DNA of 64,000 bases from Klebsiella pneumoniae (GTDB lineage Bacteria > Myxococcota_A > UBA796 > GCA-2862545), in the NCBI GenBank assembly GCA_945861065.1, contig CAMASI010000012.1:8139-72138 (forward strand), in the 5' to 3' direction. Shown piece after piece: positions 15,627 to 61,681 of this stretch. The position numbers and the translations under genes were made by a program. The notes beneath the pieces were generated by a model, which worked only from the letters and a program-made list of their open reading frames with translations, ran no database searches and was not told where the DNA came from. The first letter of the stretch is position 1, and each line of letters opens with the position of its first letter.

Positions 15627-15713
15627 GTGCAACCTCCCGGTCGACGGCGCTCTAGCCCCGACTGCGGGGCGTCGCCCACGAATCAGGCTAGACCGCCAGC
15701 CGCCGGAGGCCAC

Positions 15714-17138: not shown

Positions 17139-17139
17139 C

Positions 17140-20636: not shown

Positions 20637-21989
20637 CTAAAGCGCCGGCAAATTCTGGGCTAGATCGGTCACCAATGGCGCCGACAGAACGACCTGCGGT
20701 TCCAACGCAGCCCACAAGGCCTGAGCAATCGGGTCCGCGGGGTCATACAAGTCCGTCGTCTCGGTGGGGTCGGCGGCCCGGTCATACATGTCTACAGCCC
20801 CCGACCAGGAATATTCCATGCGGTAATCCCCCATTCGTACCGCTTGACGGGGCAACAGTCGGGTGACCGTCGACGAGAAGATCGGCCTGTCATAGGCCGC
20901 TTCACTCACCGGGATTCCGGTCACCTCCGCCGGGACATCTATGCCGTACAGTTTGAGCAACGTGGGTGCAAGGTCAATGGCCGACGTCGGCTCGTTCCAC
21001 GTTCCTTGCACGATATTTTTCGCCCAGAAAAGCATCAATCCGTCGTTCTCCTCGGGGCCAAGTTGGTAGGCGTGGCCTTGGTAACCGTGCTCAAAAAACC
21101 CCTCGCCGTGGTCATTCCACACCACCACCAACGTGTCCTCCAAAAGGCCGGCCGCGGCCACATCGATCCACATGGCTTCGAGCAGATTGTCCGTCCATTG
21201 TAATTCACCGTCATAACGAACGCGAAGGTGTTTTAGCAGGAGGTCCTGCTCCGCCTCGGTCATCGAGCCCCACTCCGCTATGGCCTGGTACTGTTCGTCT
21301 TTGTTGGCCAGGTCCCACGGCACGTCCGCCAATTCTTCGAGTCCGCTTAAGAACTCGACCGGCGGGTTGTAAGGCGCATGCGGCTCCTTGATGTGGAGGT
21401 GCAGGAACCAGCGGTCCACAAGTCCTGCGTTCCTGGCACTCTCAAGGCTCGTAATTCCCTCCGCTGAAATATTGAGGGCGGCTGCATTCGTGGGCAACCA
21501 CTCCTCGTCGAAGCCCTGGGTGCTTCGCCATTCCGGGCTGTACCAGGAGTTGCTGCTCACGACGATGCTATAAAATCCAGACGGCCGTAGCCAGTCCGGC
21601 AGCATCGGCGTGCCTTCGGGCATGGGCTCGCGAAACTCGTTGGACAATCTCGGCTCAAACCCATTCTCTTCGTGGGTCCGACCCAATAGATTTCCCGTCG
21701 TTCCCGCAAAGGTCCAGTTCGAAAGGGTTTGGTGTTCTGTCAGCGCGTAGCCGGAATCGTGCAGGCCATCGAGGAAGTCGGTGAGGCCCGTTCCACCATA
21801 GGCCTTCAACGAATCCCTGCGAAAGGTGTCCACCGAGATCCACAACAGGTTCTTCGGGACAAATCCATAGAAATTCGGCGTTGTTCCTATCGGATCGCCA
21901 TAATCTGCCGGGTTGACAGGCACCGGCGGCGGCGTAGGCTCACCCTCACCGCAGCCGGATAGAAAGGCCATCCACAACAAAGTAGGCAT
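20637..21989 (-). CDS. Sulfatase-like (alkaline-phosphatase superfamily) lipoprotein with a degenerate formylglycine motif
   Basis: Lipobox AFLSGC. LLWISVDTFRRD carries the metal-binding Asp, and VVWNDHGEGF is also present. The position of C/S-x-P-x-R reads SNWTFAGTTG, with no Pro or Arg. Confidence 0.7.
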   Translation of the reverse strand: MPTLLWMAFLSGCGEGEPTPPPVPVNPADYGDPIGTTPNFYGFVPKNLLWISVDTFRRDSLKAYGGTGLTDFLDGLHDSGYALTEHQTLSNWTFAGTTGNLLGRTHEENGFEPRLSNEFREPMPEGTPMLPDWLRPSGFYSIVVSSNSWYSPEWRSTQGFDEEWLPTNAAALNISAEGITSLESARNAGLVDRWFLHLHIKEPHAPYNPPVEFLSGLEELADVPWDLANKDEQYQAIAEWGSMTEAEQDLLLKHLRVRYDGELQWTDNLLEAMWIDVAAAGLLEDTLVVVWNDHGEGFFEHGYQGHAYQLGPEENDGLMLFWAKNIVQGTWNEPTSAIDLAPTLLKLYGIDVPAEVTGIPVSEAAYDRPIFSSTVTRLLPRQAVRMGDYRMEYSWSGAVDMYDRAADPTETTDLYDPADPIAQALWAALEPQVVLSAPLVTDLAQNLPAL

Positions 21990-22040
21990 GCACTCGTTGT
22001 AGCCCGGCGGCCGGGCCACCGCGCAAATCTGGAGTGGCTC

Positions 22041-22862
22041 ATGACCCTTGATCAACTCGTGACGGGCGTTCGCCCAGGCGATTTCGCCGTATTCGACGCG
22101 GACGGCACCCTCTGGACCGGTGACGTCACAGAATCGCTATTCGCCTCGCTGGTGCAACGGGACCTCAGGTTCGACCGGCTTCCGGACTCGCTCCAGCCGT
22201 ATCCAGCGCACCCCGGTGAAGACCCGTTCTCGTACTACTTGCGAATCACGAAGGCAGACATCTCGCTCGGCTATGCCTGGATTGCCTCCGCTTTCGCTGG
22301 CTACAGGCTCGGCGACCTGGTGGAGAGGCTCGAAGCCCTTCAGGAAGAGGCAAGGCCCCCCAGCGGCCCGCACGGCCCGATTGCCGCACCGCACGTCCGG
22401 CCGGAAATGGTCGCACTTCGTGCCGCGCTGGAGGAGCGGGGATGTGCGTGCTGGATCGTCAGCGCGTCCCCTGAGCCGCTCGTGCGCTGGCTCGCAACCC
22501 ACCCGCGTTTCGGTGCAGGATTCAACCCGGCCAGAATCATCGGTGTAGACGTGCTACTGCACAAGTCGGACGCGACGCTGTCTTGGGGCAGCTGCCGTGA
22601 ACACGGGACCGTTCCAGACCTGGCTGCTTTGCACAGCTACAAGATGGGCACGCTGCTCCGGTCACCCAATCCGTGGTTCGAGGGCAAGGTCGCCGCCATT
22701 CGGCGGTGGATCGCACAGACCGCAAATCCGTGGCTCGTCGCCGGCGACAGCCTCAACGACGTGCCCATGTTGTCGATCGCGCATCATCGGGTTTGGTGGG
22801 GAAGCGGTGCACCACCCGCTGAGCTGGGACCCGTGTCGGTCGGTCTAGTCCAGACCAAGTAA
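22041..22862 (+). CDS. HAD-superfamily hydrolase (subfamily IB-like)
   Basis: FAVFDADGTLW carries the DxDGT nucleophile motif. Also WIVSASPE and VAGDSLNDVPML. Confidence 0.75.
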   Translation: MTLDQLVTGVRPGDFAVFDADGTLWTGDVTESLFASLVQRDLRFDRLPDSLQPYPAHPGEDPFSYYLRITKADISLGYAWIASAFAGYRLGDLVERLEALQEEARPPSGPHGPIAAPHVRPEMVALRAALEERGCACWIVSASPEPLVRWLATHPRFGAGFNPARIIGVDVLLHKSDATLSWGSCREHGTVPDLAALHSYKMGTLLRSPNPWFEGKVAAIRRWIAQTANPWLVAGDSLNDVPMLSIAHHRVWWGSGAPPAELGPVSVGLVQTK

Positions 22863-25800
22863 TACTGTCAGGTTGTCGGATCCGAAGTTCGACGTGACCA
22901 CGTCGTCCAGGCCGTCGGCGTTGAGGTCCCATACGCCGACACCATAGGGCTGGTCGGCGGGCACAACCACCTCGACGGCGGCCGACCAATTCTCAGCGCC
23001 TAGCCCAAGTACGAAGCTGACGGAGTCGCGGCCCGGGTTGGACACCACGAAGTCAAGCAGCCCATCCCCGTTGAAGTCTCCCGTCGCTACGTCGGCCGTC
23101 AAAGCCGCCGCGCCACCCACCACGACGGGCACCACCTTTGGGGGTGCGAAGACCAGTGGCGTGGCTGTTCCCCCCAAGTAGGTCACGTCGTTCGTGTCTT
23201 CATTGGCCAACAGGACATCGAGGTCGCCGTCGCCGTCGAGGTCCTCTACGACCAAGGACACCGGGTCCTTGCCGGCGATTCCAACGCTGGTCAGCACCAT
23301 CGCCGCGCCGGTCGAAAACGCCCCGGTACCCGTGCCTCTGGCCACGTGCAGAGAATGGTCGAAGCGGCACGCCATGACGGCGTCGAGAACGAGGTCCTCA
23401 TCCATGTCGATGAGTTGTACATCCCTCGGCCCGTTGCACGGAAAGACCACCGATTCAAAGGTGAGGAGTCCGGCCACGTTCTCCATCGACACGAGTCCGT
23501 CATCAAACTCCGCGACGAAGACCGCGTCGAGATCGAGGTCACCGTCTACGTCGCCCAGCGCCCCAGCAGTCCCGAATTCGCCACCCCCTCCGGTGCTCGT
23601 TGCTGACGTCGTCCCAAAACTACCGGACGGGTTTTGCAGCCCAACGTAGGCCAACGACGTCGTACCCGACAGTGCAAAGACGTCGGGAAGGCCTGACAAA
23701 CCGATGGAACCGATGTCCACGCTGAACAGCGCGTCGGCCACACCGACGGACTGTGAGGACGTAAAGGAACCGTCGCCCAGGCCCGCGAGCACGGCAACAA
23801 ATCCACCATCCGACAACGAAACCGCCGCGTCCAGAAGGCCGTCTTCGTTGATGTCGCCCAACGCGACGTAGTCGGCACTCACGTCGCCGACGTACCCAGG
23901 CCACGCCCGGTAGGAACGCGGCACCGAAAAGGTCCCGTCACCTTGGTTGAGCACCACCACCAGGTCGGCGGACAACTCGCAGGCGACGACGATGTCGAGA
24001 TCACCGTCTGAGTCCAGGTCGCCGAGCACGACGTCGTCTGGGCCATCGCCGTCCGCACCGGAACCGACATGGATCCCGATGGCCGGATCGAAGGCCGCCC
24101 CTCCGGGTAGGCCAAACAACACGCTGATATCGTCGTCGTCGAGGTCCGCGGTGACGAGGTCAAACTGGCCGTCGCCATTGAGGTCACCCGCCGCCAGCCC
24201 ATGCGGCCCCTGCCCGCTGGTGGCACCTACGCCAAATAGGGTTTCAAATCGGACGGGCGCGCCAAGGCCCCCCACACCGTTGGCGACCAGCACGGTGACG
24301 TCGTTGGAGACGTAGTTTGCTGTCACGACGTCTTTCACGCCGTCGCCGGTGAAGTCTACGAGTACGATTTCCACCGGCTGGTCACCGCCAGGGCCAACCC
24401 GGGTTGTGAAGTTGCCAGAAAGCACGAAGGTGCCCGCGCCCAGGCCTTTAAGCACCGTCACGTCATCGCTGAACTGGTTTGCCGTGACGAGGTCGCCAAC
24501 GCCGTCGCCGGTCACATCACCGTAGGCCACATCGATGGGCCCATCACCAGCCGGCGCAACAAACGTCACGTATTTGGCGTTCGCCACAAAGGTCGAACCG
24601 CCGGAACCGAACAATACGACGACGTCGTCAGTCCCTTGATCCGCGCTCGCAGCGTCGAGGTCCCCGTCCCCATCAAAGTCAGCCAATACGATTCCGAGCG
24701 GCGACTTTCCGCCCAAGCTGATCAGTGTGGAGGATTTCGCCAATTCATTAATCGCACGGCCTGCACCGGTAAATGTATCGAGACGGTCGTTACCGTTCGC
24801 GGCCGAGACGACGTCGAGGTGACCGTCCTTGTTGACGTCCGCAATGGCGATTCCGGACGGTCTCACGCCGCTAACACGGGTCTGTGGTGGCCAAAGATCT
24901 CCGGACGGCAACCCGATCGCGACGGTGAATTCGTCCGACAACTCGTCCGCCACCACGACGTCAATTCGGCCATCGCCGTTGACATCGCCGAGGTCGAGGT
25001 ACCGAGGTCCATCCCCGTGCGCCAAGGGGTTGTTGTCGAGGGGGGCGATCAGCGCCGCGTCAAAACTGACCGTGGCCGACAGGCAGCTCTCGAAACAGGC
25101 GCCGCCGTGCGCACCGTTTGCAGCGCCGTCGTCGCACTCCTCACCTTCCTCGATAGCGCCATTCCCGCACCCGTCGAGGATGCAGACCGACGAACAACCA
25201 TCGCCATCGATCAGGTTGCCATCGTCACAGGCTTCGATTGCGTCACGAATGAAGCCGTCGCCGCAGGAGGCGGGTAAACAGTTGGACGGGCAGGCATCAT
25301 CGTCATCGATGTTGAAGTCGTCACACAACTCCCCGCCATCAATCACCCCATTTCCGCACGCTTCCGTGCTCAGGCAATCGGAAGAGCATCCATCACCATC
25401 GGCGACGCCGCCGTCGTCACAGCGCTCGAATTCGTCCCAGATGAAACCGTCACCACACGAGGCGGGCTGACAGACCGAACAGGAATCGGTCTCGTTATCG
25501 TTGGCGTCGTCGCAGATTTCTCCCGGATCGAGTGCGCCATTTCCGCAAGTTTCTAGCAAACAGGCGGGGCTGCAGCCGTCCCCGGGAAACAGATTGCCGT
25601 CGTCGCACAACTCGCCCGTACTGTGAATTCGGCCATCACCGCAGGTCGCCGGACGGCAGGTGGAGGGGCAATCGTCGGTGTCGTCGAGGTCCCCGTCATC
25701 ACACAGCTCGCCAGCGTCGAGGTTTCCATCCCCACAGGTGTCGAGCACGCAGGACGAGGAACAACCGTCGCCGTCGAACAGGTTGCCATCGTCGCACCCT

Positions 25801-27371
25801 TCGGTCAGGGTGAGGGCGCCGTCGCCACAACCGAGCCCTTCCAACTCGCAGCCGGGCGAACACCCGTCGCCGGGTGAATGGCCGCCGTCGTCGCACGCTT
25901 CGAAGGCGTCGATGACGCTGTTGCCACACGATTCAAGCACACAGTCGGCAGAGCAACCGTCTCCGCCGAGGTCGCCTCCGTCCTCGCAGGTTTCGCCGGG
26001 GTCGAGCAGCCCGTTGCCGCATCCTTCGAGCACACACCAAACGGCACAACCGTCCCCCGCCGCGTTGTTGCCATCGTCACACGCTTCGCCAGGGTCCAAG
26101 AGTCCGTCGCCGCATCCGGCCCCGCTGTACTCGATGTCGCAGGTCGCCCCGCAACCATCGCCCTCTATGACATTGCCGTCTTCGCACCCTTCGCCCGGAT
26201 CGAGCATTCCGTTCCCGCACCCTTCGGCCACGCAGAATCCGTTGCACCCGTCGCCCGGGTTGTTGTCCCCGTCGTCGCAATCTTCGCCGGGATCGGTCAC
26301 CCCGTCGCCGCAGGTGGCCGCTATTTCCACGACACAGGCCGCGTCGCAGCCGTCTCCGCTCAAGCCGTTGCCGTCCTCACATTGTTCGCCCGGGTCCAGG
26401 TACGGATTGCCGCACACTTCAACCCAGCAACCGCGCCCGCAACCGTCGCCTCCGACCACGTTTCCGTCGTCACATTCTTCGCCGGGGTCATCGCTGCCGT
26501 CGCCACAAGCTGGACCGAAGGCCTCGACAAAACAGGCGGAAGAACACCCGTCGCCATCGTTCGCATTTCCGTCTTCGCAAGCTTCGCCGAGGTCGAGGTA
26601 GCCGTTGCCGCAGCCCTCGATCCAGCATCCGTGGCTGCACCCGTCGCCGTCATCGGGGTTGGAATCGTCACAGGCTTCGCCCGGCGCCAGCACACCGTCT
26701 CCACAAAAGACGGCCTCAAAGTTACAATCTGCGCTGCAGCCGTCGCCGCTCTCCCCATCACCGTCTTCACACTGTTCGCCGGGGTCGAGCACGCCGTTGC
26801 CGCACACTTCGAGCCGGCAGGTGGTGCCGCACCCGTCCCCCGCCACAAGACCGCCGTCGTCGCACTCTTCTGCGAGGTCGGTGGCTCCGTCGCCGCAACT
26901 GCCGGGCGCCGCGATCACCTCCACCTGACAAGCGCTGTCGCAACCGTCGCCTGAAGCCGTATTTGCGTCTTCGCAGGCTTCTCCCGGGTCGATGACGCCA
27001 TTGCCGCACACTTCCACGTCGCAGCGAGGCGAGCAGCCATCCCCGGCGGCGAGGTTCCCATCGTCACAGGATTCGTCGGAATCGATGATTTCGTCGCCAC
27101 AGCGCTGCGCGGGTTCGACCGTACATTCTGACGAACACCCATCGTCGCTCGCGGAGTTTCCGTCTTCGCATTGTTCACCGACAGCGACGTCGAGCACGCC
27201 ATTGCCGCAGTACTCTTCGGACGTGCACAGACTGTTGCAGCCGTCACCGGACTGGCCGTTCCCGTCATCACACAGCTCGCTAGCCTCTACGACCGAGTTG
27301 CCGCAGGCGCCCACGACCGGGGCTACGTCGCCACCGCAGGCCGCCAAAAGAACGAAGAACAAAGCGCGCAA
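22845..27371 (-). CDS. Giant lipoprotein with about 20 myxobacterial cysteine-rich repeats followed by an FG-GAP/VCBS repeat region
   Basis: Lipobox VLLAACGG. Repeats of the type CGNGVLDPGEQCEDGN..SGDGCS..C fill the N-terminal half. Repeats of the type GD.NGDG..D.V fill the C-terminal half. Confidence 0.85.
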   Translation of the reverse strand: MRALFFVLLAACGGDVAPVVGACGNSVVEASELCDDGNGQSGDGCNSLCTSEEYCGNGVLDVAVGEQCEDGNSASDDGCSSECTVEPAQRCGDEIIDSDESCDDGNLAAGDGCSPRCDVEVCGNGVIDPGEACEDANTASGDGCDSACQVEVIAAPGSCGDGATDLAEECDDGGLVAGDGCGTTCRLEVCGNGVLDPGEQCEDGDGESGDGCSADCNFEAVFCGDGVLAPGEACDDSNPDDGDGCSHGCWIEGCGNGYLDLGEACEDGNANDGDGCSSACFVEAFGPACGDGSDDPGEECDDGNVVGGDGCGRGCWVEVCGNPYLDPGEQCEDGNGLSGDGCDAACVVEIAATCGDGVTDPGEDCDDGDNNPGDGCNGFCVAEGCGNGMLDPGEGCEDGNVIEGDGCGATCDIEYSGAGCGDGLLDPGEACDDGNNAAGDGCAVWCVLEGCGNGLLDPGETCEDGGDLGGDGCSADCVLESCGNSVIDAFEACDDGGHSPGDGCSPGCELEGLGCGDGALTLTEGCDDGNLFDGDGCSSSCVLDTCGDGNLDAGELCDDGDLDDTDDCPSTCRPATCGDGRIHSTGELCDDGNLFPGDGCSPACLLETCGNGALDPGEICDDANDNETDSCSVCQPASCGDGFIWDEFERCDDGGVADGDGCSSDCLSTEACGNGVIDGGELCDDFNIDDDDACPSNCLPASCGDGFIRDAIEACDDGNLIDGDGCSSVCILDGCGNGAIEEGEECDDGAANGAHGGACFESCLSATVSFDAALIAPLDNNPLAHGDGPRYLDLGDVNGDGRIDVVVADELSDEFTVAIGLPSGDLWPPQTRVSGVRPSGIAIADVNKDGHLDVVSAANGNDRLDTFTGAGRAINELAKSSTLISLGGKSPLGIVLADFDGDGDLDAASADQGTDDVVVLFGSGGSTFVANAKYVTFVAPAGDGPIDVAYGDVTGDGVGDLVTANQFSDDVTVLKGLGAGTFVLSGNFTTRVGPGGDQPVEIVLVDFTGDGVKDVVTANYVSNDVTVLVANGVGGLGAPVRFETLFGVGATSGQGPHGLAAGDLNGDGQFDLVTADLDDDDISVLFGLPGGAAFDPAIGIHVGSGADGDGPDDVVLGDLDSDGDLDIVVACELSADLVVVLNQGDGTFSVPRSYRAWPGYVGDVSADYVALGDINEDGLLDAAVSLSDGGFVAVLAGLGDGSFTSSQSVGVADALFSVDIGSIGLSGLPDVFALSGTTSLAYVGLQNPSGSFGTTSATSTGGGGEFGTAGALGDVDGDLDLDAVFVAEFDDGLVSMENVAGLLTFESVVFPCNGPRDVQLIDMDEDLVLDAVMACRFDHSLHVARGTGTGAFSTGAAMVLTSVGIAGKDPVSLVVEDLDGDGDLDVLLANEDTNDVTYLGGTATPLVFAPPKVVPVVVGGAAALTADVATGDFNGDGLLDFVVSNPGRDSVSFVLGLGAENWSAAVEVVVPADQPYGVGVWDLNADGLDDVVTSNFGSDNLTVLLGLD

Positions 27372-28218: not shown

Positions 28219-29748
28219 GTGAGGCCCGCCCCGGGCGGCGTGGTGGCAGCGGGCCACTCGGCCACAGCCGACGCAGCCGCAGCACTCCTGACGGCAGGGG
28301 GCAACGCCATAGACGCCGTCGTTGCGGCCGCGGCTGCAAGCTGGGTCGCGGAACCCTGCTTGACCAGTGCCGGCGGTGGCGGAATGCTCCTGATGGGCGA
28401 CGGCGCTTCCTGGGAAGCCGTGGACTGTTTCGGTATGGTGCCCGGCACCGGCTTGGATGCGGCCAGAAACCTCGATTTCCACGAGATCGCGGTGGACTTC
28501 GGACCCGTCCGCCAAACATTTCATGTCGGACGGGGGTCCGTAGCCGTGCCCGGCTTGCTCGCCGGCCTCCTCGACGTGCATCGTCGGGCCGGTCGCGCGC
28601 CGCTGACCGATGTGCTCGCGCCCGCGGTCCACCTCGCACGCAGCGGGGTCGCCCTCACAGAGGCGATCGCGTTCATGCTGCGAATCATCGAACCGATCGC
28701 CCAACTCACGCCGGGCACACGAACCCTCTTCGGGTGCCACAACGGCATGCCCGGAACCGGGACAGTCCTCACCAATCCCGATCTCGCGGGCTTTCTTGAG
28801 GCGCTCGGACACGATGACGCTCAAGCCATCGGTGACCTCTGGGTCCCTGGCCTTCTTCAAACGTTCGGCCCAGACCAGGGCGGCCGGCTAACGTCCGCCG
28901 ATCTCCGGGCTTGGGCACCGGTTTCTCGTCCCGCACGCGCCACGCCCTTTGCCAACGGTGTCGCCTTCACCATGCCACCGCCCGTCTCAGGGGGCGACAT
29001 CGTCGCAGTGGGTTTGCGCGCTGCCGATCGCCTCGGCTTGCCCAGCAAACCACGAACCGACAGCTCGCGATGGGCCGACATCGCCCGTTGCCTGGCAGCA
29101 CAAGCCGCTGCAAGAGGAACCCACATCACGACGTTGGACGACCGAACGATCGACGCATGGCTCTCCGCCGTGCCGGGCCGGGAATCTCGGGTTGCCGGCA
29201 ATACAACCCATGTGAGCGTGATGGACGGCAACGGCCAGTTCGCCGCATTGACCCACAGCAACGGCGAGGGCTGCGGCCACGTAGTGCAGGGCTTGGGCGT
29301 TCACCTCAACAACTTTCTCGGAGAGGAGGACATCAATCCCCTGGGTTTCCACATCGCACCCCCAGGAAGCACGCTCTCCACCGCAATGGCCCCCACTGCT
29401 TGGGTCCGCGGCGCCGATGTCGTCGTCGTCGGCTCAGGCGGAAGTAAACGAATCCGGTCCGCAATCGCCCAGGTCCTCATACATATCGCCTCCGGTGACA
29501 CGCCCGCCGCCGCCATTGCCGCTCCCCGGTTGCACGTGGAAGGTTCGCAACTCAGCTACGAAGCCCAAGGGCTTCCCAACGAAGCGGAAGAAACCCTGCG
29601 AGCACGATGGCCAAACGCCGTCCGCTTCGACGAGCCCAGCATGTTCTTCGGGGGCGTTCACGCCGTCGGTCGCTCAAATCACGAGCCCTGGGCGGCCGCC
29701 GACGGGCGCCGGGGCGCCGCCGTACGTTTCGCGCTCACAGCCCAATGA
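28219..29748 (+). CDS. ggt: Gamma-glutamyltransferase family protein
   Basis: GGVVAAGHSATADAAAALLTAGGNAIDAVVAA, and GNTTHVSVMDGNG with the autoprocessing/nucleophile Thr. The start is uncertain. GTG 28219 was chosen so that it begins after the upstream stop; the ORF track starts at 28138. Confidence 0.8.
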   Translation: MRPAPGGVVAAGHSATADAAAALLTAGGNAIDAVVAAAAASWVAEPCLTSAGGGGMLLMGDGASWEAVDCFGMVPGTGLDAARNLDFHEIAVDFGPVRQTFHVGRGSVAVPGLLAGLLDVHRRAGRAPLTDVLAPAVHLARSGVALTEAIAFMLRIIEPIAQLTPGTRTLFGCHNGMPGTGTVLTNPDLAGFLEALGHDDAQAIGDLWVPGLLQTFGPDQGGRLTSADLRAWAPVSRPARATPFANGVAFTMPPPVSGGDIVAVGLRAADRLGLPSKPRTDSSRWADIARCLAAQAAARGTHITTLDDRTIDAWLSAVPGRESRVAGNTTHVSVMDGNGQFAALTHSNGEGCGHVVQGLGVHLNNFLGEEDINPLGFHIAPPGSTLSTAMAPTAWVRGADVVVVGSGGSKRIRSAIAQVLIHIASGDTPAAAIAAPRLHVEGSQLSYEAQGLPNEAEETLRARWPNAVRFDEPSMFFGGVHAVGRSNHEPWAAADGRRGAAVRFALTAQ

Positions 29749-29766
29749 CCTCCGCAATTCGAACTT

Positions 29767-30396
29767 CTACTCCTCAGGCTCGGTCGGGTCGAAGGCAAAC
29801 GTCGCCACTTCCTCCGCTAGGCCTCCAGTCCAAGCCATCGAACCGACCCACTGCCCGTCCGAATAGTTCGCCACGATCAGCAGATCGGTCTCCGCAGCGG
29901 CAGGCACCCAGAGGCTTCCACGCACATCGCTCGACGGAATGGCACCTACCAGTTCGACGGTGCCGTCATCCATGGCGGTGGCCGACCCCGAAAACACCTC
30001 ATCCAACAAGCCGTCCCCGACCCACAAGGAGGCCACCACACTGACCTCATAGGCCGGCCGGCAAGCCGGAGGCTCGCCCGAAAGCAGTCGCACTTCGGCG
30101 TCTTCAGAATGGAATTCCAACGAACCATCCAGCGAGCTGTCACCCACCAGCACGTCGCCGCCCCACCGGCCACTCGCCGCATCCAACAGCACTCCGGCGG
30201 GGAACGCCATCCCGGCCGCGGTGGTCGCCGGGTCATCGACCAAGCTGGTGCTCCCGCAATCCGCAAACACCTCCGGTTCGTGCAAAGTCAGCGTTTCCAC
30301 CTCGACCTTGGGTCCAACACACGCCACCATCAGCCCAAGGCAGACGGCCTGCAGCGCCAACCCGATTGGGAGTTTGACCATCGCCTGCTTGTCCAT
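29767..30396 (-). CDS. Hypothetical lipoprotein
   Basis: Signal peptide plus lipobox MDKQAMVKLPIGLALQAVCLGLMVAC. Confidence 0.55.
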   Translation of the reverse strand: MDKQAMVKLPIGLALQAVCLGLMVACVGPKVEVETLTLHEPEVFADCGSTSLVDDPATTAAGMAFPAGVLLDAASGRWGGDVLVGDSSLDGSLEFHSEDAEVRLLSGEPPACRPAYEVSVVASLWVGDGLLDEVFSGSATAMDDGTVELVGAIPSSDVRGSLWVPAAAETDLLIVANYSDGQWVGSMAWTGGLAEEVATFAFDPTEPEE

Positions 30397-30521
30397 GCCC
30401 CAGACTACCCAAGGAAGGCGCAGCACTTGTCACCACACGTCACGAGTCGTCGCGTTCCGTCACAACAGCATCGAACCGTGAAGATCTGACCCATACCCCG
30501 CGGAACCTTAAAGGAACGTCG

Positions 30522-31286
30522 ATGTGGACGATCTTGATCGCCTGCGAGGCCACACAATCCGCGGTGCGCCATGCGCCGCCATCGCCGACCAGCGCGCCGA
30601 TAACCACGGCAGACGAAACCGGCGGCCCCGCGAGCCGGTCGGAGCCCACAGACACCGCGGCCGCACAAGAACCTTGCCCGGCAGGCATGGCGACGGTCGG
30701 TCCCTCGCTGTGCATCGACCGATGGGAGGCTTTCCTCGAGGGACAGTCGCCGTACGAGGTTCCGAGCGAGGGCGTGGCCGTTTCGGCGTTGGGAAGCGTA
30801 CCCCAAGGCTACATCTCTGGCGACGTCGCCGAACTCGCTTGCCTTGCTGCTGGCAAGCGCCTGTGCACGTCGACTGAATGGCAACTCGCCTGCAGCGGCG
30901 AGGCGGGACGGACCTATCCCTATGGAGATCTGTACGACGGCGACGCCTGCAACGACACGCGGACCCAACACCCCGTGGTGGAACTGTTCGGTGCTGACGC
31001 AGATTGGAGCACGGCACAAATGAACGACAGTCGGCTCAACCAGCTCCCGGACAGTCTGGCCGCGAGCGGTGACTTCGCCGCCTGTGTGACACCCGAAGAG
31101 GTGGCTGATTTGCACGGAAATCTGCATGAGTGGGTCGCTGACGCAGCGGGTAGTTTTCGCGGCGGTTTCTTCGTCGACGCTGTTCTGAACGGGCCAGGCT
31201 GCAGCTACGTCACGACGGCCCATGACCGCAGTTACCACGACTATTCTACCGGATTTCGTTGCTGCACCGACCCAACGCTTCCGTGA
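30522..31286 (+). CDS. Formylglycine-generating-enzyme (FGE/SUMF1) family lipoprotein
   Basis: Lipobox ILIAC. CPAGMATV..LCIDRWE...RLCTSTEWQLAC...DLHGNLHEWVAD...GFRCC is the typical FGE-sulfatase fold signature. Confidence 0.75.
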   Translation: MWTILIACEATQSAVRHAPPSPTSAPITTADETGGPASRSEPTDTAAAQEPCPAGMATVGPSLCIDRWEAFLEGQSPYEVPSEGVAVSALGSVPQGYISGDVAELACLAAGKRLCTSTEWQLACSGEAGRTYPYGDLYDGDACNDTRTQHPVVELFGADADWSTAQMNDSRLNQLPDSLAASGDFAACVTPEEVADLHGNLHEWVADAAGSFRGGFFVDAVLNGPGCSYVTTAHDRSYHDYSTGFRCCTDPTLP

Positions 31287-31412
31287 CCGGCCGCGGAAAC
31301 TGATTTCGCAAAGAATCCCGAACCAAGATGCCCGCACTTTCATGTTACATTCGCCATGCGGCTCCCCGCCGCGTCAGCTCCCGTTCCCTCCCCTCCCTCC
31401 CCGGCAATCCCC

Positions 31413-32876
31413 ATGCTACCACTGCTTTCCGCGTATGCGTTGGCGCAGGCTGTGCCTGCAATCGATGGCCAGACGTGGCGCCCGCCGTTGGATTCCACCA
31501 CGACCGTATGGACTGAAACGAGCGCCGTCGGTCCGGACGGATCCGGCTCGGCCGCTGCATGGATGTCCTACGCCTACCGTCCCTTGAGGGCGACCGACAG
31601 CACCACGGGCGAACGCATCCCGCTGTTGTCGGACCTGTGGCAGACGAACCTGACCGCTCATGCCGCGTGGGAAGGGCTGCGGCTCGGCGCCGATCTTCCC
31701 CTGGTGATGTTTGCCGGCTCCGCGGTCGCACCCGACGGCGCAGGCCTCGGGGACACCGCGCTTGACCTGAAATGGGGAATCACCGATCCCCAGGATGCGC
31801 CGCTCGGCGCCGCGCTTGGGGGCAAGTTGATCCTTCCGACAGGCTCGCTTCGAGCGCCCGTAGGCGCGTCGGCGATCGGTTGGGAAGTGTACGCAGTCGC
31901 TGAACATCTGGAGGGGGACTTCTCGGTGATCGGCAACGCCGGGCTCCGCGGACTTCCTCGCGGAACCTGGGGCGACTTGGTGTGGAACGACCAGGCTTTC
32001 GGCCGGGTGGCCGGCACCTACAAGCCCGTTGAACACCTGGGCGCAAGCGCCGAGTGGGTGGTGCAAACCCAGTTCTCGCCCAGAGAGAATCCTGCGGGCA
32101 CAGCAACAGAACTCGTCGCCGGAGGTTTGTGGTCACCACGACGCGACCTCGTCGTGCGCGGCGGTGTCGGTGTGGGGCTCTCCACCGCTCCGGGCACGGC
32201 GGGTTTCCGCTCCTTGGCGAGCATTGCCTGGGTCCCCGACCCGCATCGCGACCGCGATCTTGACGGACTCGCAGACCGCGCAGACCGCTGCCCCATCGGT
32301 GCCGAAGACCGCGACGGTTTCGCCGACGACGATGGTTGCGTCGACCCCTCCAGCCATGTGTCACTCCGGATTTCCGACAGCGCCGGCAACAACGTACCTG
32401 ACGTTGTCGTGCTCGTAGACGGCCCGGAACACAAGCGGTGGTCCGGCGGCGACCTCGACATCGAGTTGCACCCAGGGACCTACAAGGTCACCGCATCCGC
32501 CCCAGGCTACTTGACCCTGGAACGCGACCTTGTCGTGCCCGAGACGTTTGCCGTCCGCCTCATCGACACGTTGGTCCCCATCATCGGCACGGTGTCCGTG
32601 CGAGCCGTAGACCTCGCTGGGCGACCCCTGCAAGCCTGGGTGACGCTGTCGGGGGGCGAGGCGATTCCAGCCGACGGTAAGCCAATTCAAACGTCAGTCG
32701 GCGAGCATACACTCGTCGTCTCGTCGCCCGGTCACGCCGCTGCAACGGCGAGCCTTGACGTGCGCCTCGGCGAAGCCCGCGAATGGACCGCCGTGCTCGG
32801 CACGCTTCCTACGCTGTCGGTCGTGCCGCGCCGACCGACCGACAACGAGGGTGGGACCGCAACCGCCAGCCCATAG
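31413..32876 (+). CDS. Secreted protein with a beta-barrel-like N-domain, a thrombospondin-type-3 (Ca-binding) repeat and carboxypeptidase-regulatory-like beta-sandwich domains
   Basis: Signal peptide MLPLLSAYALAQA. DRDLDGLADRADRCPIGAEDRDGFADDDGCVD is a TSP3/OmpA-type repeat. LHPGTYKVTASAPGY and GEHTLVVSSPGH are CarboxypepD_reg-like. Confidence 0.55.
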   Translation: MLPLLSAYALAQAVPAIDGQTWRPPLDSTTTVWTETSAVGPDGSGSAAAWMSYAYRPLRATDSTTGERIPLLSDLWQTNLTAHAAWEGLRLGADLPLVMFAGSAVAPDGAGLGDTALDLKWGITDPQDAPLGAALGGKLILPTGSLRAPVGASAIGWEVYAVAEHLEGDFSVIGNAGLRGLPRGTWGDLVWNDQAFGRVAGTYKPVEHLGASAEWVVQTQFSPRENPAGTATELVAGGLWSPRRDLVVRGGVGVGLSTAPGTAGFRSLASIAWVPDPHRDRDLDGLADRADRCPIGAEDRDGFADDDGCVDPSSHVSLRISDSAGNNVPDVVVLVDGPEHKRWSGGDLDIELHPGTYKVTASAPGYLTLERDLVVPETFAVRLIDTLVPIIGTVSVRAVDLAGRPLQAWVTLSGGEAIPADGKPIQTSVGEHTLVVSSPGHAAATASLDVRLGEAREWTAVLGTLPTLSVVPRRPTDNEGGTATASP

Positions 32877-32909
32877 CGGCCGCAGACCCCCCACAATAGG
32901 GCCGCGCCG

Positions 32910-33368
32910 ATGCTTCTCCTCCTGCTCGGTTGCGGCACAACGCCCGAAGAATCAACGCCCACCGACACCGCCCCAACCACGGGCACGGTGGCGCTTCACT
33001 TTCAGCTCGATTCCGTCTTGCTCAGCTACGTGGATCAGCCTCCCGTCGGCGCCTTCTGGGGCTCCATCTACCTTTCGGAAGATGTCACGGGACTCGGGCC
33101 TTCTGAAGACGCGCGTCCCCTCGAAGACGTGTTCGTGGTTGCCGTGGACCTGTCCGACCTCACCCTGCCTGCCCTTTACACCACAGCCGCGCTGCCCGTG
33201 GGGCGCCTCACCGTGCTCGGCTTCGTGGACACAGACGGCAACGCGGTCACCGACAGTCCTGACCCCGATGACGGCGACCCCGTCACGTTGCCTGGCGAGA
33301 ATGGTTTTGACGTCAGCGCCGATACGACCACCGACGTCACCGTGTTTTTCGGTCTCCTCAACCCTTAG
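32910..33368 (+). CDS. Small lipoprotein, beta-sandwich-like
   Basis: Lipobox LLLLGC followed by a T/P-rich linker. Same strand and close spacing as the neighbouring genes. Confidence 0.55.
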   Translation: MLLLLLGCGTTPEESTPTDTAPTTGTVALHFQLDSVLLSYVDQPPVGAFWGSIYLSEDVTGLGPSEDARPLEDVFVVAVDLSDLTLPALYTTAALPVGRLTVLGFVDTDGNAVTDSPDPDDGDPVTLPGENGFDVSADTTTDVTVFFGLLNP

Positions 33369-33376
33369 GGGCATCC

Positions 33377-34321
33377 ATGTTCTTCCTACTCGCAGCGTGT
33401 TCGCCCGACGTCGATTTGCCAGAAGGCAGCGCGTCTGTCTCCGAGGTCGAAGACCTCCGTCGCGATGACTTCCCATTGCCACCCGAGGGCGGCATGCAAT
33501 GGATCACACCGGACTACGTCATTCCCGCATTCAGCGAACAAATGATGTGCTGGGTGACGACCTGGGAGGGCGAGACCACCGGGATCTCTGGCTTGTACAC
33601 GTACCAAAGCCCGCTCGGACACCATGTCGTCGTCAATCTCACCAACGCAGACCCTACCGCACTTCCCGACGGCTCCACCTTCGACTGCACTAAGACCGAA
33701 GACCTTCCAATGACCGAGCTTGAACCACTCATGGTGGGCGGCGTCATCGGCGGCGCGGAAAACAACAACGAGGGCGCCGTGGTCCTCCCAGAAGGCATGG
33801 CGACGCGCCTGGCATCAGGCTCCCGTCTCATTCTACAGTCACACTACGTGAATGCCACGGCGAACGACATTCTCGTTCGCGACGTGGTCAACGTGGCCTT
33901 CGTTCCAGAGAGCGAAGTGGACATCTGGGCGGCCGCCTTCGTGCACGTGCAGACGGACCTTGCGATCCCCGAGGGCCCATCTTCCATCGACTTTAAATGT
34001 ACCTGGGAACAGGACGCGACGCTCCTGTTCCTCGGCGGACATATGCACGAATGGGGCGCCTCATTTTCGACGAAATATACCCCGATCGGTGGCGAAGAAA
34101 CCGTGATCTACGACATTCCAGCGTGGGATCCGTTGTACCGCGACGCGCCTCCGGTCAACGACTACCAAGCAGCCCCCTGGGTTGTGTTTACCGGAGATAG
34201 TTTCACCACGCATTGTGCCTGGGACAACGACACCGGCGGCGTTCTCGAGTTTCCCGCCGAAATGTGCGTGACCTTCGGAATGTTTTACCCGTCGCAAATC
34301 CCAGTCGTGTGTGAGTCATGA
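33377..34321 (+). CDS. Type-2 copper monooxygenase-like lipoprotein (PHM/DBH family)
   Basis: Lipobox LLAAC. All six Cu-ligand positions of peptidylglycine monooxygenase can be matched. GHHVVVN and LQSHYVN align to the CuH site (HH...H). GGHMHEWG and AEMCVTFGMFYP align to the CuM site (HxH...M; compare DEMCNLYIMYY). Confidence 0.7.
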   Translation: MFFLLAACSPDVDLPEGSASVSEVEDLRRDDFPLPPEGGMQWITPDYVIPAFSEQMMCWVTTWEGETTGISGLYTYQSPLGHHVVVNLTNADPTALPDGSTFDCTKTEDLPMTELEPLMVGGVIGGAENNNEGAVVLPEGMATRLASGSRLILQSHYVNATANDILVRDVVNVAFVPESEVDIWAAAFVHVQTDLAIPEGPSSIDFKCTWEQDATLLFLGGHMHEWGASFSTKYTPIGGEETVIYDIPAWDPLYRDAPPVNDYQAAPWVVFTGDSFTTHCAWDNDTGGVLEFPAEMCVTFGMFYPSQIPVVCES

Positions 34322-34692
34322 TGTGGTTGCTGATCGCCTGCGCAGGAAACGCCACGACCGACACCGCTTCGAAACCCGCCACGCCAGACTTTGCGACGAT
34401 TGAGGCGGACATCCTCCGTCCCTCTTGCGGGTTCAGCGTCTGCCACGGCACGGGGACGGGCGGATTGACGCTGACGGGTGAAGGCGACCATGTGCGGCTG
34501 ATCGACGTCGAATCCGTGGGCCAGCCCGGTTCCATACTGGTCCTTCCGGGAGACTCCGCCAACAGCTACCTCCTCCACAAGATGGAGGGCGCAGCCGGCA
34601 TCGTAGGCGACCCAATGCCAGCGCCCAACGGGAGCGATTCAGACGTTGTGGCGCAACTAAGGGCCTGGATCGACGCGGGCGCCCTACCGTAG
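34318..34692 (+). CDS. PSCyt1-like (planctomycete cytochrome-c-domain-like) lipoprotein with a CX4CH motif
   Basis: Lipobox LLIAC. ILRPSCGFSVCHG...GGLTL......LPGDSANSYLLHKM.....DPMP......QLRAWIDAGA follows the PSCyt1 pattern, except that CX4CH replaces CXXCH. The ATG overlaps the upstream stop (ATGA at 34318-34321). Confidence 0.55.
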   Translation: MMWLLIACAGNATTDTASKPATPDFATIEADILRPSCGFSVCHGTGTGGLTLTGEGDHVRLIDVESVGQPGSILVLPGDSANSYLLHKMEGAAGIVGDPMPAPNGSDSDVVAQLRAWIDAGALP

Positions 34693-34707
34693 GGTAGGAG
34701 CACCGCT

Positions 34708-35076
34708 CTAGTTCGCGGGATCGGGGTCTAGGACAAACACATAGCCCTCGTCGTCACAGTCAAAGGCCTGCGAACACGACAATAGCAGGTCAGCGCTGTC
34801 TACCGCCCACGACGGACAAGAGCCCTTCAGCCCATCGATGCAGATCTGCGCCTTGTCTTCGGCAAACGAACACGTCGCCAAGTAGTCTGCGATGCCCTCC
34901 CAATAAGAAGTCGTCAGCGACTCGCAGGAGGTCTTGCTGTCGTACACACCGTAAAACTCGGCGGCGTCGCACTTCTCCTGGAAGTCACACATCGCGAGCG
35001 CCGCATCTTCGCCCCACGACTCTGCGCTCACGGCACCGCCGCAGCCAACCAAGACTCCCAACAGAACGCAGCGCAT
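34708..35076 (-). CDS. Cysteine-rich lipoprotein
   Basis: MRCVLLGVLVGCGG lipobox. There are 10 further Cys in about 110 aa. Confidence 0.5.
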   Translation of the reverse strand: MRCVLLGVLVGCGGAVSAESWGEDAALAMCDFQEKCDAAEFYGVYDSKTSCESLTTSYWEGIADYLATCSFAEDKAQICIDGLKGSCPSWAVDSADLLLSCSQAFDCDDEGYVFVLDPDPAN

Positions 35077-35108
35077 CAGGTCACTCCAGGCGCGCTGCGC
35101 TAACCCTG

Positions 35109-35498
35109 TCACGAGGTGCGGGGCTTCGCCTCGGTGATCACGAAGAAACGCACACCATCGACTTCGAGCAACTTGCCACGGAAGTCAAGACCGGCCTTCG
35201 TGTCCGTCACGGCGTCCAGGATTCCATTCGCAACGACCGCGACGCCATCCGCGACCATGAACGGTACCGCGACTTCGGCGATCACTTTCTTCTTCGCAGG
35301 TGCAAGAACACCGCTGTACGCAAAGTCCGCGCCATCGAGCAGCACGCGCTGGGCCATCGAGCCCGTCGCATAACTACAGGCAGAACCGACCAACTCCGCC
35401 TTGGACGCGCAGTTCGCAGCGGCATCAGCGGCAGCCGCACCGGGACACGCAAATGCAGGAGCAGCCAAACCTAGGGTCGCAAACAACAGTAGACGCAT
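35109..35498 (-). CDS. Secreted hypothetical protein
   Basis: Signal peptide MRLLLFATLGLAAPAFA. Confidence 0.5.
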   Translation of the reverse strand: MRLLLFATLGLAAPAFACPGAAAADAAANCASKAELVGSACSYATGSMAQRVLLDGADFAYSGVLAPAKKKVIAEVAVPFMVADGVAVVANGILDAVTDTKAGLDFRGKLLEVDGVRFFVITEAKPRTS

Positions 35499-37899: not shown

Positions 37900-39096
37900 T
37901 CACAGCGGTAGGTACCACACAGTGACGGTCTCTCCGGCATCGGGTACCGCGGTGCCATGAAGCAGCACCTGATGATCCGCTTCCTCCCAAGTCCAACCGT
38001 CTCCCCATTGCTGAACACCGAACAAATCCCGACCCATTTTTTCAGCAGGCGGAATGCTACGGGATTCCACGGCCACCAACAACGTCTCCGGATCCGGGTC
38101 TCCCAACAAAGGAACAGCACCACGACCTCCACCCACCAACGTCCCGATCTTGCGTAGGGCCTTTTCGAGGTCGGCGGGCAGGCAATTGTCCGCAAGAATC
38201 GATGATTTCACGCCGCCGCTGGCGTCGACCAGCACGTCGTACCGTTCGACACCCCAACTTGCGGTGATCCCACCGCAAATCACTTCACCGGCGTCATTGA
38301 TCATCGGGCCGACCACAGCCCAAGCGACGGGGATGTCGAAGGCTCGAAAAAGCTCTTGATACTTACGGGGGACGGCGACGACCTCACCTTCGCGCCGCGA
38401 GTTGTCTCCTTCGTCGCTGACAATGACCGGTATGAACGTGGCGCCTGGGCGCAACAGGCCGACATTCGTGCCGACGTCCGCGTCACCGAACAGTTCGGGA
38501 AGTTCGAAGCACTCGACCGGTGGTTCTTCAACGGCCCGGCACAGCGCGAGAAAGACGGCCTCCAGCCCTTCCTCCCGTCCTGCGCCACAGTTGCCCAGCC
38601 ATGCGCCAACGCCGCAGGCACAATCGAGCCCTTCTTGGGTCACGTCCCCGCAAGCCGACTCCGGGTCGGACGGCAAAGAATCCCGCGTCGGAAAACACGC
38701 TGTTTCGCACAAAAGGTTTTCCAAAAAACGGGCCGCGATGTCGGGCTCATCTCGTACCAGTACTGGTGAGGGTCCAAGAAGCGCTCCCCGATCCGTTGTC
38801 GCGTCTGTCGACGTGATGGCCAGCTGAAACGATGCAAACCGGGCCGGGTCGGAAACCTTGTCCACATAGGAGCCGACAGCGTCGGCGAGCCCGTCCGTCC
38901 CATAGCGAGCATCATCGCCTTCCAGGTCACGGACGAAGCCTCGGAAATGCACCCCCAACGACGTGGCTTCCTCCACCATGGATTTCGAGTTGTCCACGAC
39001 AAAGAGAACATCCGCCTCATCGGACACAGTTCCCTGAAGGTGTCCCTCCACCTGCATGAAATCGTATCGGTTGCACGCAGCCCACACCCAGATCAC
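37900..39096 (-). CDS. VWA-like domain lipoprotein
   Basis: Lipobox VWAAC. ADVLFVVDNSKSM has a DxSxS MIDAS-type motif. Confidence 0.55.
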   Translation of the reverse strand: MIWVWAACNRYDFMQVEGHLQGTVSDEADVLFVVDNSKSMVEEATSLGVHFRGFVRDLEGDDARYGTDGLADAVGSYVDKVSDPARFASFQLAITSTDATTDRGALLGPSPVLVRDEPDIAARFLENLLCETACFPTRDSLPSDPESACGDVTQEGLDCACGVGAWLGNCGAGREEGLEAVFLALCRAVEEPPVECFELPELFGDADVGTNVGLLRPGATFIPVIVSDEGDNSRREGEVVAVPRKYQELFRAFDIPVAWAVVGPMINDAGEVICGGITASWGVERYDVLVDASGGVKSSILADNCLPADLEKALRKIGTLVGGGRGAVPLLGDPDPETLLVAVESRSIPPAEKMGRDLFGVQQWGDGWTWEEADHQVLLHGTAVPDAGETVTVWYLPL

Positions 39097-58270: not shown

Positions 58271-58296
58271 CTTGGTTCTTGGTTCTTGGTTCTTGG
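58271..58296. repeat. Heptanucleotide tandem repeat (CTTGGTT) x3 plus CTTGG, inside the 5' end of the giant lipoprotein gene
   Basis: The sequence reads directly as ATGC-CTTGGTT-CTTGGTT-CTTGGTT-CTTGG-CGCG. Confidence 0.95.
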
Positions 58297-61200: not shown

Positions 61201-61681
61201 TGGTTTCGCTCCGGTGGTCGCTTGTGAGGGGGGTCTCGGCGCCGTTGCGCTCGTGAGTACCGACGTGGACTGCGACGATTCCGATCCACTGACGAATCCC
61301 GATGGCGTGGACGTGTGCGGCGACGGCCTCGATCAGGATTGCAGCGGCGCCGACAAGAGCTGCGTCGCCGCGCTCATCGGTCGATTCCGAATCACCGACG
61401 GGCCGAGTTGGACGGGTGACCCAGACACGTTCACCTGCCTCGAAGCCTGTGCGGAGGTCTTCGGCGGACTCTCTACGGACTACGCGTGCTCGACCGACGG
61501 CGCGGCTGTGGACAACCAGTCCTTCGTGGATGGGTGGGGCGATGACACGTTCTGCACGTCGCCGAAGCCGGAGACCTTCAAGAAGAACACGCACTATGAT
61601 TGCGGCGCCGTAGGCTGTTCCTACTCGGCCTACGTGACCGATCACGGCTGCACGACCTTCAACTACTGCTTCCTGCTGTAA
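58286..61681 (+). CDS. Giant lipoprotein: N-terminal DNDGDG..DC.D.DC modules, then about 13 'putative metal-binding motif' (MopE-like) units and a Cys-rich C-terminal domain
   Basis: The lipobox LACSGG is reached only from a TTG at 58286. Repeats have the form W..D.DGDGYG.....C..P......DCDD.D..I.PGA.E.CN..DDDCDG..DD.DP. Confidence 0.75.

Follow-up and report, generated by a model that had tools for sequence, protein, structure and literature searches.

The copper proteins PHM, DBH and TBM are the textbook ascorbate-dependent copper enzymes of animals, and how electrons reach their CuH site and cross to CuM is a long-running question. Haem proteins feed other copper enzymes: the cytochrome domain of cellobiose dehydrogenase reduces lytic polysaccharide monooxygenases (LPMOs), and copper nitrite reductase receives electrons from cytochrome c551 or from a fused cytochrome c domain. 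We know of no PHM/DBH-type enzyme for which a cytochrome donor has been demonstrated. Here we analyzed a stretch of 64,000 nucleotides of contig CAMASI010000012.1 (GenBank assembly GCA_945861065.1), hereafter the window, in which three adjacent genes at 32910-34692, g3, g4 and g5, would encode, on what we regard as a narrow balance of probability, a three-component, membrane-tethered periplasmic copper monooxygenase that is reduced by a dedicated c-type cytochrome. The fold and ligand set of such an enzyme are known, and the partner set and the presumed reductant are new. No characterized bacterial PHM/DBH-type system, description of such a cassette or functional study of PSCyt1 was found in the literature searched, the coverage of which was incomplete, and this is absence of evidence only; it agrees with the opinion, given in an earlier reading of the DNA letters without database searches (the sequence-only reading), that bacterial members are essentially uncharacterized.

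The cassette closes a run of five plus-strand genes, g1 to g5, with the following coordinates in the window.

30522-31286, plus strand: g1, open reading frame (ORF) of 254 amino acids (aa), FGE-sulfatase-fold lipoprotein
31356-32876, plus strand: g2, ORF of 506 aa, secreted protein with CarboxypepD_reg domain(s)
32910-33368, plus strand: g3, ORF of 152 aa, lipoprotein with no Pfam family
33377-34321, plus strand: g4, ORF of 314 aa, PHM/DBH-type lipoprotein
34318-34692, plus strand: g5, ORF of 124 aa, cytochrome-c-like lipoprotein
34318-34321, plus strand: ATGA overlap of the g4 stop and g5 start codons, read from the sequence

The spacers measure 69 bp (g1/g2), 33 bp (g2/g3) and 8 bp (g3/g4), and g4 and g5 share a 4-bp overlap (-4) that is consistent with translational coupling. 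The sequence-only reading had described five closely spaced plus-strand genes, each with a lipobox or signal sequence, and the ATGA junction between the last two; both descriptions were borne out, coordinates included. As called by eye, lipobox-like N termini are present on g1 (MWTILIAC), g3 (MLLLLLGC), g4 (MFFLLAAC) and g5 (MMWLLIAC), while g2 carries the signal-peptide-like leader MLPLLSAYALAQA, which starts at an internal methionine, Met20. The lipobox cysteine is invariant in the g5 family, conserved in at least 90% of the g4 family and present in 4/4 aligned g3 sequences with complete N termini. A promoter and terminator scan of 29700-35300 gave counts at the level of shuffled sequence, which do not inform the transcript boundaries, and no convincing internal promoter or terminator was detected between g1 and g5. 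Scanning the window with profile hidden Markov models (HMMs) revealed one copy each of g3, g4 and g5, and no second copy of any of them.

Very short lipoprotein-type leaders, with 7-8 residues before the lipobox cysteine and without a basic n-region, are common among the exported proteins of this organism. In the window they are found on the genes at 10483-12240 (minus strand), 30522, 32910, 33377, 34318, 37900-39096 (minus strand) and 58286-61681 (plus strand), none of which has an in-frame ATG, GTG or TTG upstream as far as the preceding stop codon. Equally short leaders are present on several g4 and g5 homologues from related metagenome-assembled genomes (MAGs).

The identity of g4 was established through its family, as a search of the PDB with the single g4 sequence returned noise only and a family profile together with a structure model was required. 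A word-indexed search retrieved 199 homologues, and an exhaustive search with the g4 profile against cluster representatives (50% identity) returned 6805 at E<1e-3, 2648 at E<1e-10 and 435 at E<1e-30; some family members already carry the database label 'Copper type II ascorbate-dependent monooxygenase, C-terminal domain'. When 43 homologues with 31-67% identity to g4 were aligned, 19 columns proved invariant, including H82, H83, H156, H222, H224, M296 and six cysteines. Judged from this alignment, the invariance of the six putative ligand residues is far beyond chance. The copper-ligand strings present in g4 are GHHVV, QSHYVN, GGHMHEWG and AEMCVTFGMFYP. Using rat PHM as the reference (PAM 36-356, checked as 100% identical to 5wm0_A), hhalign aligned the two over 244 columns that cover both domains (95.1%, E 3.2e-8). 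The predicted CuH ligands H82/H83 and H156 of g4 fall on PHM H107/H108 and H172, and the predicted CuM ligands H222/H224 and M296 fall on H242/H244 and M314, in agreement with the six positions that the sequence-only reading had matched by motif. Their codons are located as follows.

33620-33625, plus strand: His82-His83 codons of g4, predicted CuH ligands
33842-33844, plus strand: His156 codon of g4 (QSHYVN), predicted third CuH ligand
34040-34048, plus strand: His222-Met-His224 codons of g4 (GGHMHEWG), predicted CuM ligands, counterpart of the DBH HTH motif
34262-34264, plus strand: Met296 codon of g4 (AEMCV), predicted CuM methionine

The same alignment pairs three disulfides of PHM with cysteines of g4 (C58-C104 with C81-C126, C208-C312 with C227-C334 and C280-C297 with C293-C315) and g4 Q154 with PHM Q170. 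The g4 family profile also detected human DBH (4zel, E 4e-5), with HMH...AEMCV placed on HTH...EEMCV. An AlphaFold2 (AF2) model of g4 built on the family alignment has a mean predicted local distance difference test (pLDDT) score of 92.6, with block means of 93-98 near the ligands. When this model was compared to the PDB by Foldseek, the best 31 matches were exclusively PHM/DBH (E 1.5e-14 to 1.5e-11, template modelling (TM) scores 0.51-0.67), and the next match followed at E 1.7e-5. With fold, ligands and disulfides all conserved, g4 is very probably a two-copper protein of the PHM/DBH type, as had been proposed from the letters; copper loading and monooxygenase chemistry would follow from this framework.

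Set beside the PAM core (PHM; PDB 1PHM, 1SDW), g4 shares the two-beta-sandwich fold (Foldseek ~1e-14), the HH...H and HxH...M ligand patterns of CuH and CuM, three disulfides and the glutamine equivalent to Q170, and both proteins comprise ~300 residues without a DOMON domain. They differ in that sequence identity is ~17%, PHM is a secretory-granule protein whereas g4 is a bacterial lipoprotein, and PHM uses ascorbate whereas g4 is partnered with a cytochrome c gene, the product of which would serve as reductant. Unlike PAM, g4 has no PAL lyase partner. PHM R240, N316 and Y318, which we take to be the anchors of the peptide C-terminal carboxylate and backbone, become G220, V298 and F300 in g4, with G220 located within the near-invariant GGHMHEWG. 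With these anchors replaced, g4 does not appear to be a peptidylglycine enzyme, and a peptide (peptidylglycine) substrate is unlikely; a peptide had been among the earlier suggestions. DBH/tyramine beta-monooxygenase/MOXD1 (4ZEL) is the best sequence-profile match of g4 and gave the top query-normalized TM score, 0.67; DBH also has a valine at the position of PHM N316. DBH is ascorbate dependent and contains an N-terminal DOMON domain and a C-terminal dimerization domain, both of which g4 lacks. The separate protein g3 is a beta-sandwich but gave no DOMON-type structural match.

The genes that accompany g4 were examined at 20 independent g4 loci, seven from exact-protein matches (L004, L006, L007, L021-L024) and 13 from species-representative genomes (L008-L020), and gene presence was scored by profile HMMs and tblastn. 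Those loci with a taxon label came from MAGs, mostly of Myxococcota, Deltaproteobacteria or Proteobacteria. A g3 homologue was present at 17 loci, usually 0-30 bp upstream of g4, and a g5 homologue at 12, while neither g1 nor g2 was found at any (0/20 each). The conserved unit is therefore smaller than the five-gene operon that the sequence-only reading had built around the enzyme: synteny holds for g3 and g5 and fails for g1 and g2, and g3, treated there as a bystander, proved to be the most constant partner of g4. At L021, where g4 is 67% identical to that of the window, g3, g4 and g5 follow one another, the last two again overlapping by 4 bp; ahead of g3 lies a Pyr_redox_2 gene, and g1 and g2 are absent. 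The 4-bp overlap of g4 and g5 recurs at L024 as well, and the two genes abut at L026. At least five kinds of gene order were recorded: g3-g4-g5 (window, L008, L009, L020, L021 and L024), g5 divergent from g3-g4 (L010 and L011), g4 followed by g5 and g3 on the opposite strand (L015), g5-g4-g3 (L018) and g4-g3-g5 (L023). Starting from g5 instead, three further loci were recovered, of which L026 and L027 contain full cassettes and L025 a solitary g5. The last belongs to assembly GCA_046766455.1, in which two g3-g4 pairs without g5 (L005 and L007) lie on a contig or contigs other than that of the solitary g5.

Some loci showed individual features. At L017 (7424-8744), g4 begins at profile position 73, g3 is missing and a divergent g5 is kept; this is probably a decayed or mis-assembled copy. 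The g4-g3-g5 cassette of L023 (2043-6748) comes after a gene for a Metal_resist/LTXXQ protein and a gene pair for a response regulator and a histidine kinase. At L024 and L027 a series of NADH dehydrogenase (Complex I) genes lies close to the cassette on the opposite strand, Oxidored_q4 being the nearest of them, with an RNase HII gene in between in L027. These contexts, each seen at one or two loci only, might hint at control by envelope-metal stress or at a respiratory connection.

Fusion proteins were sought among the 150 best g4 representatives by inspecting those longer than ~400 aa. The N-terminal domain of P0166 (459 aa) and of P0264 (439 aa) is g5-like, with a CX4CH motif (CAFQSCH or CGLTACH) and a PMP motif, and precedes the g4 domain (hhalign 99.3% and 99.7%, respectively). 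In P0189 (445 aa) a g3-like domain comes after the g4 domain (hhalign 99.4%, E 1.1e-21), and a C-terminal beta domain that is distantly g3-like (75.8%, E 2.3e-5) was present in P0217, P0229, P0234, P0240, P0241, P0245 and P0281. No internal signal peptide or lipobox was found in the fusion proteins, so they look like genuine fusions instead of merged gene calls, as judged from the protein sequences. Together with the variable gene order, the fusions argue more strongly than any other observation for joint action of g3, g4 and g5. The coupling of a cytochrome-like g5 to g4, which had been read from the ATGA junction of a single locus, is thereby extended to 12/20 loci, several gene orders and two fusions in other organisms. 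P0150 was not counted, as its 130-residue Arg-rich tail resembles an out-of-frame read-through. Four other g4 relatives (P0202, P0258, P0272 and P0292) carry a Cys-rich C-terminal tail of ~90-110 residues where others have the g3-like domain, for example CGFSCLAGGPCECLVNLGFSEGCATCYGDNIACAAGAC.

The closest described relatives of g5 are PSCyt1 and the class I cytochromes (c-551, c-552 and FoxE), with which it shares an N-terminal Cys...Cys-His, a PMP(P) methionine ~57 residues on and a C-terminal W-I-x-x-G-A helix. Invariant in an alignment of 18 homologues of 115-137 aa are the lipobox cysteine, C37, F39, C42, H43, M100, P101 and W117; the homologues share a C-terminal W-I-x-x-G-A. PSCyt1 (PF07635) was matched by 15/18 of these family members (best E 5.1e-5) and Cytochrome_CBB3 by 11/18, and the family profile detected the dihaem cytochrome FoxE (5mab, E 5e-6). 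In profile alignments the PMP region fell on the PMPP segment of cytochromes c-552 and c-551, which holds their axial methionine, and the haem motif aligned with that of CcoP with a two-residue gap. H43 and M100 are separated by 57 residues, a His-to-Met spacing typical of class I cytochromes. The predicted haem-binding elements are encoded as follows.

34426-34446, plus strand: CGFSVCH motif of g5, predicted covalent haem attachment site with proximal His43
34615-34617, plus strand: Met100 codon of g5 (DPMPA), predicted distal haem ligand, invariant

The PSCyt1-like label that g5 had received is right at the family level on this sequence evidence, and haem binding by g5 is probable. Typically, PSCyt1 makes up the N-terminal part of large PSCyt2/PSD1 proteins, whereas g5 is a stand-alone lipoprotein of 115-137 aa. 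That g5 is the haem electron donor of g4 we consider reasonably probable. The arrangement would be analogous to the LPMO and nitrite reductase relays, in which the haem donor is likewise a separate protein or a fused domain, although those copper enzymes are unrelated to g4 in fold and chemistry.

The third component, g3, consists of the MLLLLLGC leader, a Thr/Pro/Asp-rich tether and an immunoglobulin (Ig)-like beta-sandwich. Its AF2 model (pLDDT 87) is all-beta, with a seven- or eight-stranded beta-sandwich in which the conserved C terminus, FFGLLNP, forms the last strand. The family has a conserved acidic loop of the form GF-x-D-x-D-G-N...P-D-x-x-D-P-V-T, which reads DxDGN...PDPDDGDP in the window protein and may bind calcium, to judge from its residues. 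No match to g3 was detected in Pfam, NCBIfam or PDB sequences, and Foldseek against the PDB gave nothing better than 1e-2, the matches being generic Ig-like, pilin and lyase-domain folds; g3 belongs to no described family. Its alignment holds no conserved His, Met or Cys besides the lipobox cysteine. Assignment of g3 as a DOMON, CopC or PCuAC type was dropped for want of both such a structural match and such conserved residues, and a non-redox accessory subunit is our guess.

In the system we favor, the three lipoproteins of the cassette would sit on one membrane face, on the periplasmic side, each tethered by a linker of 15-25 residues. The N-terminal beta-sandwich of g4 would hold the electron-accepting CuH (His82, His83 and His156), and its C-terminal beta-sandwich the O2-activating CuM (His222, His224 and Met296). 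Ferrous g5, with its His43/Met100 haem c, would reduce CuH and then deliver a second electron, giving two single electrons per turnover, and would thus take the role that ascorbate has for the animal enzymes. At the CuM site of reduced g4, O2 would bind, and the C-H bond to be hydroxylated would belong to a substrate of the periplasm or envelope other than a C-terminal glycine peptide; g3 might act as a docking, substrate presentation or positioning subunit. A wider proposal, that the cassette represents a widespread class of bacterial envelope C-H hydroxylases in which respiratory electrons arrive through a CX4CH cytochrome c instead of ascorbate, together with a new accessory domain family, is offered tentatively and falls slightly short of an even chance in our estimate; it would make g4 the first cytochrome-dependent member of its superfamily, acting on a non-peptide or envelope substrate, with a cytochrome module that also serves CHRD-repeat proteins.

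Several observations weigh against a dedicated cytochrome-dependent monooxygenase. For the copper protein, the Pfam match of g4 to Cu2_monoox_C (PF03712; E 4.3e-4, 20.2 bits) lies under the 23-bit cut-off, and PF01082, the N-terminal domain, was matched by 0/43 family members, which places g4 at the superfamily level as part of a divergent bacterial branch; PF03712 was matched by 32/43 members at E<=0.01 (best 4.4e-8). For the cytochrome, g5 of the window has no Pfam match at E<=1, and its CGFSVCH is CX4CH, not the canonical CXXCH. This form is found in every g5-like motif from the related loci, with C-x-F-x-x-C-H invariant among the 18 aligned sequences, and sets the family apart from PSCyt1 and the class I cytochromes. 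The assignments of g4 and g5 in the window consequently rest on their families, since the window proteins alone do not suffice. Of the four family models put forward in the sequence-only reading, PF03781 was found in g1, PF03712 remained below threshold in g4, PF01082 was not found, and PF07635 was matched by relatives of g5 and not by g5 itself.

Linkage is also incomplete. A g5 homologue is not beside g4 at 8/20 loci. When 80 metagenome loci were seeded on the g5 motif, 24 had an adjacent g4, 16 did not and 40 were too short to judge; as g4 was scored absent only with at least 1.3 kb on both sides, it is missing from 16 of the 40 assessable g5-like loci. At L037 (3492-4327), a g3 homologue and a g5 homologue are separated by 8 bp, with no g4 within ~3.5 kb upstream or 4 kb downstream, and g3 and g5 can therefore be linked without g4. 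Where g5-like CX4CH domains occur apart from g4, they are usually C-terminal in large secreted CHRD-repeat proteins with PKD or Ig domains (L054 1019-4120, L078 2063-4321 and L064 1849-4684; also L068, L070, L072, L074, L083 and L085). L054 has two g5-like domains on its CHRD-repeat protein, and in L064 the g5-like ORF overlaps the 3' end of the CHRD-repeat ORF in a different frame. The cytochrome module is thus not exclusive to g4, and the CX4CH cytochrome seems to be a portable module that has two or more kinds of partner. An all-against-all ORF comparison of 18 loci revealed no recurring neighbors across unrelated loci beyond g3 and g5, the remaining shared ORFs being antisense shadow ORFs and genes common to the closely related L010, L011 and L017; the context of g4 therefore gives no clue to its substrate. 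The role of g3, finally, is a guess, given that it conserves no residue of a cofactor-binding type outside its lipobox. The g3-g5 pair of L037 adjoins ExbB/ExbD-like genes, as noted by eye.

The first alternative to a haem donor is that g5 is a Cu(I)-binding chaperone that loads g4, or a redox-active dithiol, with g4 reduced by a small molecule or another protein. The departure from CXXCH, the missing Pfam match of the window protein and the loci at which g4 lacks g5 can all be read in this way, and Cys, His and Met are typical Cu(I) ligands too. The family is nevertheless homologous to c-type cytochromes, as the PSCyt1, FoxE and CcoP comparisons indicate, and its invariant PMP methionine falls on the PMPP of c-552/c-551 at a class-I-like distance from the histidine. 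Its domain is also appended to unrelated CHRD-repeat proteins, as would be expected of a portable redox module. The noncanonical spacing itself has a precedent, as CXXXXCH is a documented haem c motif that binds haem in cytochrome c3 (PMC10454114, PMC11492766). Taken together, these points make a non-haem g5 unlikely.

Slightly less likely still is that g4 has no organic substrate and is either a copper-handling protein, for example one that sequesters or senses copper in the periplasm, or a cytochrome c:O2 oxidoreductase with a detoxifying or respiratory role. No conserved substrate-related gene is nearby, the PHM substrate anchors are replaced, the cassette of L023 follows a two-component system and the Metal_resist/LTXXQ protein, and another gene of the window specifies a protein in which 11 putative copper-binding motifs of the MopE type occur. 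The metal-stress context was, however, seen at one locus only, and the CuH and CuM ligand sets, the Q170 equivalent and the disulfide framework are invariant over a large and divergent family. Such strict conservation of both copper sites is what catalysis requires, and hydroxylation by g4 remains the reading we prefer.

That g3 is itself the substrate, with g4 oxidizing or hydroxylating one of its residues, is improbable. It would account for g3 being the most constant neighbor of g4 (17/20 loci, usually directly upstream), for its lack of cofactor-type residues and for the unusual conservation of its extreme C terminus. Yet that C terminus is the last beta-strand of a confident fold and has no terminal glycine, L037 pairs g3 with g5 in the absence of g4, and the fusion of g3-like domains to g4 in P0189, and probably in seven more proteins, fits a subunit better than it fits a substrate that undergoes many turnovers. 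The view that g1 to g5 form one functional envelope system, in which g1 would contribute a second copper oxidase and g2 a component of the outer membrane, draws on co-directional genes with gaps of 69, 33, 8 and -4 bp, the lack of a convincing internal promoter or terminator and the exported appearance of all five products, but it is largely refuted by synteny (g1 and g2 at 0/20 loci, including the 67%-identical L021, and only g3 and g5 recurring in the clustering of neighbor ORFs across unrelated loci); the likeness of g1 to CalU17, ToxD and SUMF2 instead of active FGE also counts against it, and it is the least probable of the four.

If the favored reading is true, the cassette would provide a defined protein electron donor for PHM/DBH chemistry, with a branch of 435 representatives (E<1e-30) that keeps every ligand. 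Its small soluble domains would be suited to bacterial expression, and the natural fusions to the study of intramolecular electron transfer. It would also point to oxidative modification in the envelope of Myxococcota-like bacteria, and the presence of the CX4CH module on CHRD-repeat proteins would hint at a broader set of periplasmic redox enzymes. The cassette also gives a first context to the g3 domain and to the CX4CH PSCyt1-like cytochromes, both of them families that lack a function.

The two local neighbors of the cassette were assigned separately. g1 matches FGE-sulfatase (PF03781) at 3.5e-8, with 33.9 bits against a cut-off of 23.3, over profile positions 99-193 of 255 only. Among solved structures it is closest to CalU17 (8.4e-6), ToxD and the inactive SUMF2, but the alignments stop short of the C-terminal region where the catalytic cysteine pair would fall; by eye, a single cysteine is located between the RGG and GFRC motifs. 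g1 thus resembles CalU17, ToxD and SUMF2 more than active FGE, and nothing indicates a copper oxidase, so the remark that FGE itself has a copper oxidase fold, made in connection with this gene, was not borne out as bearing on it. g2 matches CarboxypepD_reg of Pfam (1.8e-8), as had been described, and its N-terminal region has a weak similarity to NCBIfam TraB (2.4e-4) that is far under the cut-off. The TSP3 calcium repeat also ascribed to g2 is visible as a TSP3-like acidic Cys string (DGLADRADRCP...DRDGFADDDGC) but has no Pfam TSP_3 match. In this organism g1 and g2 may share a transcript with the cassette, as lineage-specific neighbors outside the conserved system. A sulfatase gene (PF00884, 7.9e-22) lies at 20637-22055 on the minus strand, ~8.5 kb upstream of the FGE-fold g1.

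Three other regions of the window were recorded in passing. The plus-strand gene at 58286-61681, 24 kb from the cassette, encodes a lipoprotein of 1131 aa with 11 Pfam 'Cu-binding_MopE' putative metal-binding motifs (2e-55), which may be a second copper-related protein of the envelope. On the minus strand, 22845-27371 encodes a lipoprotein of 1508 aa in which many Cys-rich DUF4215 repeats (CGNGxxDxGExCDDGN...) are followed by FG-GAP/VCBS repeats; lipoproteins with DUF4215 and FG-GAP/VCBS repeats are a typical feature of Myxococcota-like genomes, in keeping with the taxa under which the related loci are labelled. At 15627-19782 on the plus strand, a class-III aminotransferase gene is followed directly by an ORF of 880 aa in which a second class-III aminotransferase is fused to a GMC/FAD oxidoreductase, an unusual architecture.

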